IMG/VR virus record: IMGVR_UViG_2880378312_000013
DNA length: 54,893 bases
Direction: 5' to 3' (one strand)
Origin: a virus
Taxonomy: Duplodnaviria > Heunggongvirae > Uroviricota > Caudoviricetes
The notes below the pieces were generated by a model that did no database searches, was not told the origin of the DNA, and was given only the letters and a program-made list of their open reading frames with translations. Made by a program: the position numbers and the translations under genes. Below are positions 13,959 through 16,229 of the stretch, in pieces; position 1 is the first letter of the stretch; each line of letters starts with the position of its first letter.

Positions 13959-14233
13959 TATAAGAATCCGCTTCTAATTCAAAGCATTACCCCATCAACA
14001 CTGCGCTCACACGTCCCACCACATCAAAACATGTAAAGCCTTGCAAGCCATTGCGAGGCCTTATGTGTCTCAGTTTTGTCCCACCTTGTATTACGACTTG
14101 CATAGCCAATGAAGATAAACGTGACGACAAACGGCGCAGCAGTCTTCTTTTCTTTCACGACTTCTCCAGCATGCATACCTTTCTGCCATGACTGAAGTGA
14201 ATGCCTGTTATGAGCGAGGATTGGCCCAGATGA

Positions 14234-14671
14234 ATCGCCCTGGACTGTTGCGATCGTGAAGCCATAGACTGGGCCGCAAGCACGGGAGGTTACGATAAAG
14301 CGACAGTGCAGGATGTCATGTTAGGAGCGATAGAAAAACGCTTTGGCGATAAAGTACCGGAACAGTCCATCCAGTGGCTGACAGATAACGGTTCAGCGTA
14401 TAGAGCGCATGAAACACGGCAGTTCGCCAGAGAGTTGAATCTGGAGCCCTGCACAACGGCAATCAGCAGTCCTCAGAGTAATGGAATTGCAGAAAGGTTC
14501 GTGAAAACGATGAAGGAAGACTATATCGCGTTCATGCCGAAACCGAATGTAAGAACGGCATTGCATAATCTTGCAGTGGCGATCGAACATTACAATGAAA
14601 ACCATCCGCACAGTGCGTTGGGTTATCGCTCTCCGCGAGAATATCGACGTCAGCGGGTAACGTTAACTTAA
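14234..14671 (+). pseudogene. IS2-like (IS3 family) transposase orfB remnant
   Basis: Translation [23 protein letters not shown]...[14 protein letters not shown]...[14 protein letters not shown] matches the integrase-core C-terminus of IS2 InsD as I recall it; in-frame stop upstream and no orfA. Confidence 0.6.
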
Positions 14672-14712
14672 GATACACCCCCTGTCTGGAAATAAGGGGG
14701 CAAGAACAATGA

Positions 14713-15465
14713 TCAGATTCCCTGGTGAGTAAGAATTTTACTTTCTGAACTCCTCTGAGAGTATTGACTTGGAGAAACACCAAAATAACGTCTAAATACA
14801 TAAGTAAAGTATGAGACACTGGCATAACCACAGACCTTAGCTACTTTACTAATAGGATAACAACGAGTGCTGAGTAAATATTCAGCCATTTGCATCCTCT
14901 CATCAAGTATGATCTTACTGAATGATACCCCCTCTTCTTTCAATTTCCTCTTTAGTAAACTTTCGCTGAGATATAATCTTGATGATATATCCTTAAGACG
15001 CCATGGTGCAGATAAATCCGTATGAATAATCGTTTTAACTTTAGCCCCTGTGCTTTTCAAACATCCAAACAGAAATACTCCAAATTGTTTTTCAGAAGAA
15101 AATGCAGAGAGACATGTAAAAGCAATAGACTCATCAAAAATTTCTATGTATTCAGCACAGTGATTAGCCCAACTAATTAATCCTTTAATTAAACTGAAGT
15201 CAGCAAAGTTTATTTTTAAATAAGATGGATATTCCCTACAATCAGAAATATCCCTTAAGTTATTAGCTTTCAAATAGCGACTAATAAACTCAGCGCCAAA
15301 ATCCGCCACTATCACTCTTTCAGGATATGTCAGGAAAAAATCTCTAGAGCTAGAGTCGACAAGTACAGATGAACCTCTCTCCAGAAACACACTCTCTTTT
15401 CCGAAATAAACATCAAAGGACTCCAAAATCAATATAACTGAACATGTAGTTGCCATATCATCCAC
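14713..15465 (-). CDS. AraC-family transcriptional regulator
   Basis: 250 aa, C-terminal AraC-type HTH (ISKVAKVCGYASVSYFTYVFRRYFGVSPSQY); gene is markedly AT-rich. Confidence 0.8.
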   Translation of the reverse strand: MDDMATTCSVILILESFDVYFGKESVFLERGSSVLVDSSSRDFFLTYPERVIVADFGAEFISRYLKANNLRDISDCREYPSYLKINFADFSLIKGLISWANHCAEYIEIFDESIAFTCLSAFSSEKQFGVFLFGCLKSTGAKVKTIIHTDLSAPWRLKDISSRLYLSESLLKRKLKEEGVSFSKIILDERMQMAEYLLSTRCYPISKVAKVCGYASVSYFTYVFRRYFGVSPSQYSQRSSESKILTHQGI

Positions 15466-16038
15466 CCAATTTAACTGAAACCAGGATGAAGTATATGTAT
15501 ATAAAGTTCACTTTGCCAAACTTCAGTATAAAAAACCACTAAAAATAGGGTGTGATAAAAAATACCGTAACAATAAAGCAAAGGATTATAAATTCCGTTA
15601 CAGTTACAAATGATACTCAAGAAACAATTCCTTAGGAAAAACTTATTTACAGCCAATAAGTAAGACACTTATATGATATCAAGTTTTCATAAAACATAAC
15701 TAGGCTAAATAGCTGCGCCTAATACCGCTACACTTTTGCCAGCCCATGTTTGCCTCCGGGTATTGACCCCTTCTCTACGCAACTTCAGTTCCCACCACCA
15801 ACTTTGCGGCAGCTTTGTAGGATCAATGTCTAAAAGAATAATGGTGACCGATAAGAAAACGACTGAATAACTGCAGATTTTCGCTCGAAACCTTCCTGTC
15901 AGATCCATAGCGAATCAAGTGCTGAATGTCACAGTATCGAACAGAAAACAGTGACGATCTAACCCTTCAAGAATATTCTACGATTGTTCTGTTTAGGAAA
16001 AGCAAGGCGGGAAGTCGGGAGATAAGTCATTGATAAAG

Positions 16039-16104
16039 TGGCGGAGAGAGGGGGATTTGCCCCCCCGGTAGAGTTGCCCCTACTCCGGTTTTCGAGACCG
16101 GTCC
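16039..16104 (-). other. partial tRNA-Ser(CGA)-like 3' fragment (relic att site)
   Basis: Reverse complement reads ggaccggtctcgaaaaccggagtaggggcaactctaccggggg..caaatccccctctctccgcca, the anticodon-to-3'-end part of a serU-type tRNA; 5' third absent. Confidence 0.6.
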
Positions 16105-16229
16105 AATCATCAAACGAAACATAAAATTAATTCACATTATGAGGAAAAGTATCTTTTTTGTACTATGTAAATTCAAAGACTTAGCCTCATTTCCCCGATG
16201 ATTTTCTCAACACTACTGGTTGTGAGCCC

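Follow-up and report, generated by a model that had tools for sequence, protein, structure and literature searches.

An AraC-type regulator gene that lies among insertion-sequence debris and a piece of a tRNA gene at one end of a prophage raises the questions of whether it is genuine cargo of the phage, by what route it arrived there, and whether it acts on the host or on the phage itself. We followed these questions in a 54,893-nucleotide stretch of DNA (hereafter the window). Positions 13800-16300 are 100% identical to many E. coli O157:H7 chromosomes, and the source of the window is E. coli O157:H7. The gene layout of the window (Table 1) was taken from the annotation of FRIK944 and Sakai. 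The region is, very probably, the PatE-bearing end of a thrW prophage, whose cargo would have been acquired by capture at serU and subsequent transfer between phages, a history that we read from the scars left in the DNA.

The att-distal end of a thrW prophage

The P4-like satellite that precedes the patE region carries genes for a primase-helicase, Icd, Psu and ogr/delta, an ABC-3C defence cluster and an integrase. Its limits are given here as those annotated for Sp2 in Sakai, and a search for a third thrW repeat bounding it revealed only short, weak repeats. The patE region itself is bounded on the left by thrW', which is identical to positions 53449-53495 within the intact thrW gene and corresponds to the 3' 47 nt of that gene; 0 of 100 shuffles gave such a match, and the att repeat that had been proposed at the edge of the region is thereby confirmed. 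thrW' forms the distal att junction of a 39.5-kb prophage, and on its other side it abuts the integrase of the P4-like satellite.

The 39.5-kb prophage carries the LEM-3-like GIY-YIG gene, pinE and invertible tail fibres, and its structural genes specify a Mu-like baseplate and contractile tail, an HK97-type head and a P27-type terminase. In addition, it contains lambda-like early genes. It is the full-length form of the prophages known as Sp1 in O157 Sakai and CP-933H in EDL933. Both of these are deleted versions, in which the DNA from replication gene P to the tail fibre has been lost and 10.6 kb are left, in contrast to the undeleted 39.5 kb of the window. The patE region is the att-distal accessory ('b-region-like') end of this thrW-integrated prophage, and patE is the one functional gene of that end. 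As had been stated from the first reading of the DNA, the stretch from the att repeat to the invertase is devoid of phage core genes. It holds one extra gene, that of the GIY-YIG protein, which begins just beyond the region; this accessory gene is conserved at the phage end, stands outside the patE cassette and is kept together with pinE in relatives without patE.

Both flanks of the cassette are phage arms. On the left, positions 13912-14220 are 88% identical to the end of phage phi458, positions 14024-14217 are 87.6% identical to phage 21 and lambda-like phages, and positions 14001-14082 are 97.6% identical to the envY-ompT intergenic region of K-12, near the end of DLP12. In strain A27, this att-proximal arm is found beside an integrase, with other cargo downstream. 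On the right, the native arm that leads into the GIY-YIG gene is 98-99% identical in ssrA-integrated relatives of the phage.

Table 1. Features of the patE region and of the prophage and satellite that surround it
Feature	Position	Strand	Remarks
Chromosomal genes of the ykgR/LysR region	first block of the window
P4-like satellite (Sakai 'Sp2')	block after the ykgR/LysR region, before the patE region
P4-like satellite integrase	12569-13801
thrW'	13912-13958	-	47-nt direct-repeat copy of the tRNA-Thr(CGT) 3' end
Phage att-proximal arm	13959-14234		276 bp
ISEc48 (IS3 family) 3' remnant	14235-14710	+	transposase C-terminal pseudogene and IS right end
ISEc48 transposase pseudogene	14237-14671		rve and rve_3 (E 7.6e-17) domains
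patE (Z0321 / ECs_0287)	14713-15456	-	intact ORF, 247 aa, AraC/XylS-family transcription activator; named from gene order and sole AraC gene in CP-933H
patE upstream region, presumed promoter	15457-15701	-	245 bp, 28.6% GC
IS630-family terminal scrap	15702-15760		59 nt; abuts TA in the serU flank
yodB-serU intergenic DNA, very probably captured	15761-16038		about 280 bp, directly downstream of serU
serU'	16039-16104	-	3' 66 nt of tRNA-Ser(CGA), CCA end to anticodon stem
Native arm of the Mu-like-tail / pin phage	16105-16280		leads into the GIY-YIG gene
LEM-3-like GIY-YIG domain protein	16281-17054	+	Pfam PF22945
Prophage integrase	52272-53435		adjoins intact thrW
Intact tRNA-Thr(CGT) gene thrW	53450-53525		next to the prophage integrase

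Identity and family of the regulator

[quoted passage not shown] The protein encoded in the window matches HTH_AraC in two stretches (E 1.3e-16) and HTH_18 over residues 161-238 (E 8.8e-16), both above the Pfam cutoff, and it belongs to this family. Its gene is as AT-rich as first noted, with a GC content of 35.2% against 48.8% for the window; the value for the phage body is 51.5%, and the 245 bp upstream of the gene are poorer still (Table 1). A sigma-70-like match at 15519-15490 in this upstream region is a bare consensus match that does not rise above shuffle expectation.

The protein corresponds to WP_000246059.1, the accession that is carried by genomes 100% identical to the window. This is the only AraC-family CDS in CP-933H of EDL933 (NZ_CP008957), and the gene corresponds to ECs_0287 in Sakai Sp1. 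Z0321 has been described as a 'putative regulator (prophage CP-933H)' on O-island 8 (PMC2907692), Z0314 and Z0316 are tail-fibre genes of CP-933H (PMC4048457), and z0321 on OI-8 is named as the gene for PatE in a 2024 review (PMC10877973). The Z numbers agree with the order of the genes, differing from the ECs numbers by a constant 34. On the basis of gene order, and as the sole AraC gene in CP-933H, the gene of the window is identified as patE (Z0321). It shares with the patE of CP-933H and Sp1 the protein accession and the thrW locus, as well as the neighbours pinE, the GIY-YIG gene, the ISEc48 remnant and the P4-like integrase.

The closest NCBIfam model is that of YdeO, which matches PatE over its full length with 148 bits, followed by GadX with 110 bits; both scores remain below the respective equivalog cutoffs of 348 and 500. 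AppY aligns to PatE from end to end (28% identity over 236 amino acids, E 2e-35), and EnvY aligns to its C-terminal part with 39% identity. GadX is matched at E 3e-24, and its DNA-binding domain (3mkl) is the best match among solved structures. By comparison, Rns, CsvR and ToxT match residues 69-232 of PatE at E values of about 1e-16 to 1e-14. What they have in common with PatE is the DNA-binding domain together with a portion of the N-terminal one, but they lie further from it than GadX, YdeO and AppY do. The kinship with Rns/PerA-like virulence regulators that had been suggested was therefore not upheld by the homology comparison, and no adhesin or pilus operon linked to patE was seen in the annotated neighbourhood. 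Judged by these similarities, PatE is a paralogue of the YdeO/AppY/GadX type and an orthologue of none of them.

AppY and EnvY, from the end region of DLP12, and YdeO and GadX of K-12 are AraC/XylS activators of a size similar to that of PatE. AppY resembles PatE further in being prophage-borne and in feeding the GadE/AR2 acid-resistance network (PMC10057817). PsrA and PsrB are likewise AraC/XylS regulators encoded by lambdoid prophages of O157, and PsrB, an activator of gadE, shares with PatE the hdeA region to which it binds (PMC10877973). They differ from PatE in that they belong to other prophages (OI-50 and OI-57), where they stand beside effector loci.

The patE cassette as phage cargo and the probable route of its capture

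patE is flanked by the remains of two insertion sequences. On the left, the right end of the first lies 2 nt from the patE stop codon, and its transposase pseudogene retains the DDE integrase core (rve_3 and rve) of the IS3 family. The original prediction had named an IS2-like remnant here. An IS3-family transposase remnant is indeed present and is loosely IS2-like, its protein being about 70% identical to the IS2 transposase; the element is nevertheless ISEc48 and not IS2, with 96% DNA identity to ISEc48 copies, and the repeat_region annotation in Sakai reads 'ISEc48 Family: IS3 partial'. On the right, upstream of patE, the IS630-family scrap is 93% identical to the 3' end of a transposase pseudogene on plasmid pCE33-3.

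Beyond this scrap, positions 15761-16104 (about 344 bp) are 97-99% identical to the native yodB-serU intergenic DNA and serU, which about 5400 of the 5426 E. coli genomes possess, K-12 among them. The tRNA-Ser fragment that was noted originally is part of this longer block of the serU locus. In this strain, serU' carries two T-loop substitutions, and it went uncalled by ARAGORN because it is truncated; its alignment to K-12 serU is unambiguous. Weak Rfam matches at the same piece (Plastid-psbl-rps4, tRNA-Sec and CssrB) were dismissed as side-effects of the truncated tRNA or of a hairpin.

We aligned serU' with K-12 serU, the junction of the serU prophage in EC958, ev099, NCTC11023 and the ssrA-integrated relatives. 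The real serU of EC958 is occupied by a lambdoid prophage, whose tail-fibre end meets the displaced 3' fragment of serU at ...GAGACCG/ATGATACAGAG... (the slash marks the junction). ev099 and NCTC11023 contain this very junction, phage arm included, beside patE. In the window, serU' is followed on its right by the native GIY-YIG arm of the Mu-like-tail phage instead of this lambdoid arm. The last 19 nt of serU' (CGGTTTTCGAGACCGGTCC) form a recombination core that is common to serU' and the phage arm. These 19 nt are identical to the serU anticodon stem-loop, and the ssrA-type relatives hold CGGTTTTCGAGACCGGTCC at the same spot. In these relatives, the DNA to the left of the core is unrelated, and homology to the window begins inside the core.

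Of 5426 complete E. coli genomes, 654 (12%) carry patE and 88% lack it. All contexts inspected place the gene next to phage tail-fibre or att-end genes, with tail-fibre genes no more than a few kilobases away. These contexts cover at least three phage backbones and two integration sites (thrW and att-lambda). At thrW, patE is carried by the pin / Mu-like-tail phage; another phage that carries it differs in its baseplate module; lambdoid remnants with patE lie at the thrW-pao locus; and in IAI1 it belongs to a lambdoid prophage at att-lambda. A 46.9-kb 'plasmid' with patE, pAR-0428-2, was considered as an excised phage and rejected, as it is a linear, mis-assigned chromosomal contig (fadE...proA, with the thrW locus). 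The segment 14235-16100, a cassette of about 1.9 kb, is 99% identical in the virion-derived lambdoid phages ev099, mEp332 and PhiR70_1. In ev099 it is placed between the tail-fibre assembly gene tfa and a lambda-type attP/int, which is the classical b region. In the ssrA-integrated relatives of the phage in the window, restriction-modification or BRO/ImmA cargo stands in the place of patE.

The cassette thus shows the properties of a moron or lysogenic-conversion cargo, namely a position in the accessory b region, replacement by other DNA in relatives and in A27, and an atypical GC content. The cassette 14235-16100 is true phage cargo, and this reading stands because the relatives carry other cargo and the cassette sits in lambdoid phage genomes. 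It could be argued that patE and its flanks are instead a fixed remnant of a chromosomal island at the thrW-pao locus, outside any phage genome, given that several strains have the block next to a truncated LysR gene and paoD, without a copy of thrW', and that it is built largely of IS debris. We regard this as very improbable, since the same cassette with identical boundaries is found inside virion-derived lambdoid genomes and inside the att-lambda prophage of IAI1, since the block lies within the thrW direct repeats in the window, and since few genomes carry it at all. Nor, in the contexts inspected, does the regulator occur as a conserved chromosomal gene at this site in strains without the prophage, which was the alternative that the original prediction had itself raised. 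The view that a foreign AraC gene travels as prophage-end cargo is well supported by these observations.

As regards the route by which phage cargo arose from chromosomal DNA, patE, bounded by ISEc48 and the IS630-family element, would at first have lain about 280 bp downstream of serU. A lambdoid prophage integrated at serU would then have excised imprecisely, in the manner of lambda-bio, and would have taken with it the hybrid att junction, the 3' fragment of serU, the flank and patE. Such capture of the specialised-transduction type agrees with the presence of both a block of the serU locus and a junction identical to that of the serU prophage in EC958, and the identity of this junction to that of a resident prophage argues for a lambda-bio-type event in a lambdoid phage. 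The cassette would have persisted in the b region of viable lambdoid phages, and a crossover inside the 19-nt core of the serU anticodon stem, whether made by an integrase or by short homology, would later have joined it to the unrelated Mu-like-tail / pin phage. The presence of the core in the ssrA-type relatives, with unrelated DNA to its left, argues for joining within the core. The active att/int module would since have been replaced, by a lambda type in ev099 and by a thrW type in the window.

ISEc48 is cut at the same base in the cassette copies compared, including those of ev099 and IAI1. This common truncation argues that patE was probably either IS-bounded DNA near serU or an addition made later to the captured flank by IS activity. 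Among the genomes searched, none with patE still between yodB and serU was found, and the donor arrangement is accordingly a reconstruction.

Our comparison with lambda-bio transducing phages and with the morons of the lambda b region reveals the same arrangement, in which host DNA contiguous with a hybrid att junction is placed between the tail fibres and attP/int. The lambda b-region morons also share with the patE cassette an atypical GC content and expression signals of their own. In contrast to lambda-bio phages, the patE cassette is a natural, fixed example, its integrase/att module has been replaced, and it has moved to a non-lambdoid tail module. The cassette may conceivably be a preserved lambda-bio-type excision product, in which the fossil att core of serU served as a portable crossover point between phage lineages, a proposal that we put forward tentatively and with somewhat more doubt than confidence.

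Action of PatE on the host and its significance

The action of this regulator on host genes was reportedly published in 2012 by Bender, in what is said to be the primary paper on PatE. PatE switches on gadB, gadC, gadE and hdeAB, acts via a cis-element located between -132 and -45 of hdeA and works together with the acid resistance that depends on RpoS; in addition, it has been linked to lower expression of six LEE genes, and a phenotype of the patE mutant has been reported (PMC10877973). Regulation of the gene itself is documented in transcriptome work, in which Z0321 showed a six-fold RpoS dependence (PMC2907692) and ECs0287 was induced at the transition to stationary phase (PMC2241611). In a paper on AppY, PatE and PsrB are listed as prophage-encoded AraC/XylS regulators of the AR2 system (PMC10057817). 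Taken from these sources, the likely course is that PatE is expressed in stationary phase in an RpoS-dependent manner from its own promoter and binds upstream of hdeA, which would raise gadE, gadBC and hdeAB and with them acid resistance, and that it would lower the transcripts of the LEE, and hence of type III secretion. On the evidence of reviews and transcriptome papers, PatE is a lysogenic-conversion regulator of the acid-stress network of the host and not a regulator of phage development, and the suggestion that a foreign AraC regulator at a prophage end could act on host genes matches this reported regulon.

The protein could in principle serve mainly to regulate the phage, through lysogeny, the inversion of the tail fibres or the GIY-YIG gene, with its effects on the host being incidental. 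patE is close to pin and the GIY-YIG gene, and AraC-family homologues are common in lambdoid phages, including one with 53% identity in many lambda-like genomes. Against this stand the close relatives of the phage that lack patE and yet keep pin and the GIY-YIG gene, the association of patE with unrelated phage backbones, a reported regulon of host acid-resistance and LEE genes (PMC10877973), and the greatest similarity of PatE to the host acid regulators YdeO, GadX and AppY; a primary role in the phage is accordingly very unlikely.

Truncated IS elements on both sides, the truncated tRNA gene and the heavy deletion of the host prophage in Sakai and EDL933 might also suggest that patE is a decaying, non-functional passenger among IS wreckage. 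This we consider most implausible of all, as the ORF is undamaged, with an identity of 99% or more in 655 of the 656 matching records, its expression is RpoS-dependent and regulated by growth phase (PMC2907692, PMC2241611), and the mutant has a reported phenotype (PMC10877973). The reading of patE as functional cargo that acts on the host is the one that we retain. Taken together, what was first observed at this locus is confirmed, and its interpretation is supported with small corrections, for a gene whose function was already known.

The function of PatE having been published, our analysis contributes no new biology on the gene itself. In the literature searched, we found no description of the capture scar or of an identical cassette shared between unrelated phage types; both illustrate a known principle and establish no new one. 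What is added is modest, namely a base-level account of the capture, given by the piece of the serU locus and the att junction, and the observation that one and the same cassette of 1.9 kb is in circulation both among viable lambdoid phages and in 12% of the complete E. coli genomes. It might be used as a worked example of how a moron can be acquired through imprecise excision, and if its att core did act as a crossover point, phage lineages would in general be able to exchange cargo by way of the hybrid att sites that they retain. For the bacterium, PatE stands together with PsrA, PsrB and AppY as one of the prophage-encoded AraC-like regulators that connect the carriage of phages with acid resistance and with type III secretion in EHEC, two traits that bear on the low infectious dose of these strains.

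Organization of the thrW prophage and the tandem P4-like satellite

The thrW prophage is intact in the window at 39.5 kb, whereas its counterparts in Sakai (Sp1) and EDL933 (CP-933H) measure only 10.6 kb, having lost the DNA between replication gene P and the tail fibre. The full-length form is a mosaic in which lambda-like early genes are combined with an HK97-type head, a P27-type terminase, and a tail part composed of a Mu-like baseplate and a contractile tail. The segment comprising the pinE invertase is an invertible host-range segment, likened to the Mu Gin and e14 Pin systems. 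Its orientation differs among strains, and both orientations are seen in a comparison of three loci from different strains (L013, L014 and L015). Between the GIY-YIG gene and pin, window 17078-17137 weakly resembles the Shigella sRNA CssrB in Rfam (E 0.054); its 24.5 bits fall far short of the gathering score, and the match is probably just a terminator hairpin. A P4-like satellite, which encodes a primase-helicase, Icd-like, Psu and ogr/delta proteins and an integrase, carries a defence cluster adjoining its integrase.

Coordinates of features in the window and in other phages
Feature	Sequence	Coordinates	Remark
P4-like satellite prophage (Sakai 'Sp2')	window	1043/2665-13929	tandem integration at displaced thrW copy
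ABC-3C (ABC-three-component) defence cluster	window	~9289-12565	in P4-like satellite
Integrase of P4-like satellite	window	12569-13801	
19-nt serU anticodon stem-loop copy	L009; L010; window	~5990-6010; ~5990-6010; 16086-16104	
thrW prophage, intact form	window	17115-53435	
pinE invertase with tail-fibre C-terminus and assembly genes (two sets, opposed)	window	17115-19244	
PatE homologue, example	Lambda_ev203	43541-44221	

The serU fragment and its 19-nt core

In the ssrA-integrated relatives of this phage (L009 and L010), 19 nt of the serU anticodon stem-loop are retained as a copy upstream of the GIY-YIG gene, and the cargo to the left of this copy is unrelated. It has the look of an att core left as a relic at a site of cargo exchange. 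As compared with K-12 serU, EC958, ev099 and NCTC11023, the O157 serU fragment differs at two positions of the T-loop region (GCCC in place of GAAC, window 16060-16063), a pattern that fits drift of a relic without function.

The phage att arm and PatE-like regulators

Within the phage att arm, 82 nt (window 14001-14082) match the K-12 envY-ompT intergenic region, close to the end of DLP12, at 97.6% identity; the AraC-type genes envY and appY are also located there. Phage 21 and lambda-like phages share 87.6% identity with an overlapping stretch (window 14024-14217). A homologue of the AraC/XylS regulator PatE, with 53% identity, is encoded near the right map end of many lambda-like phage genomes, and an Stx2k phage and P1-like phages have more distant homologues. 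It therefore seems that phages recurrently carry PatE-like AraC regulators as cargo.
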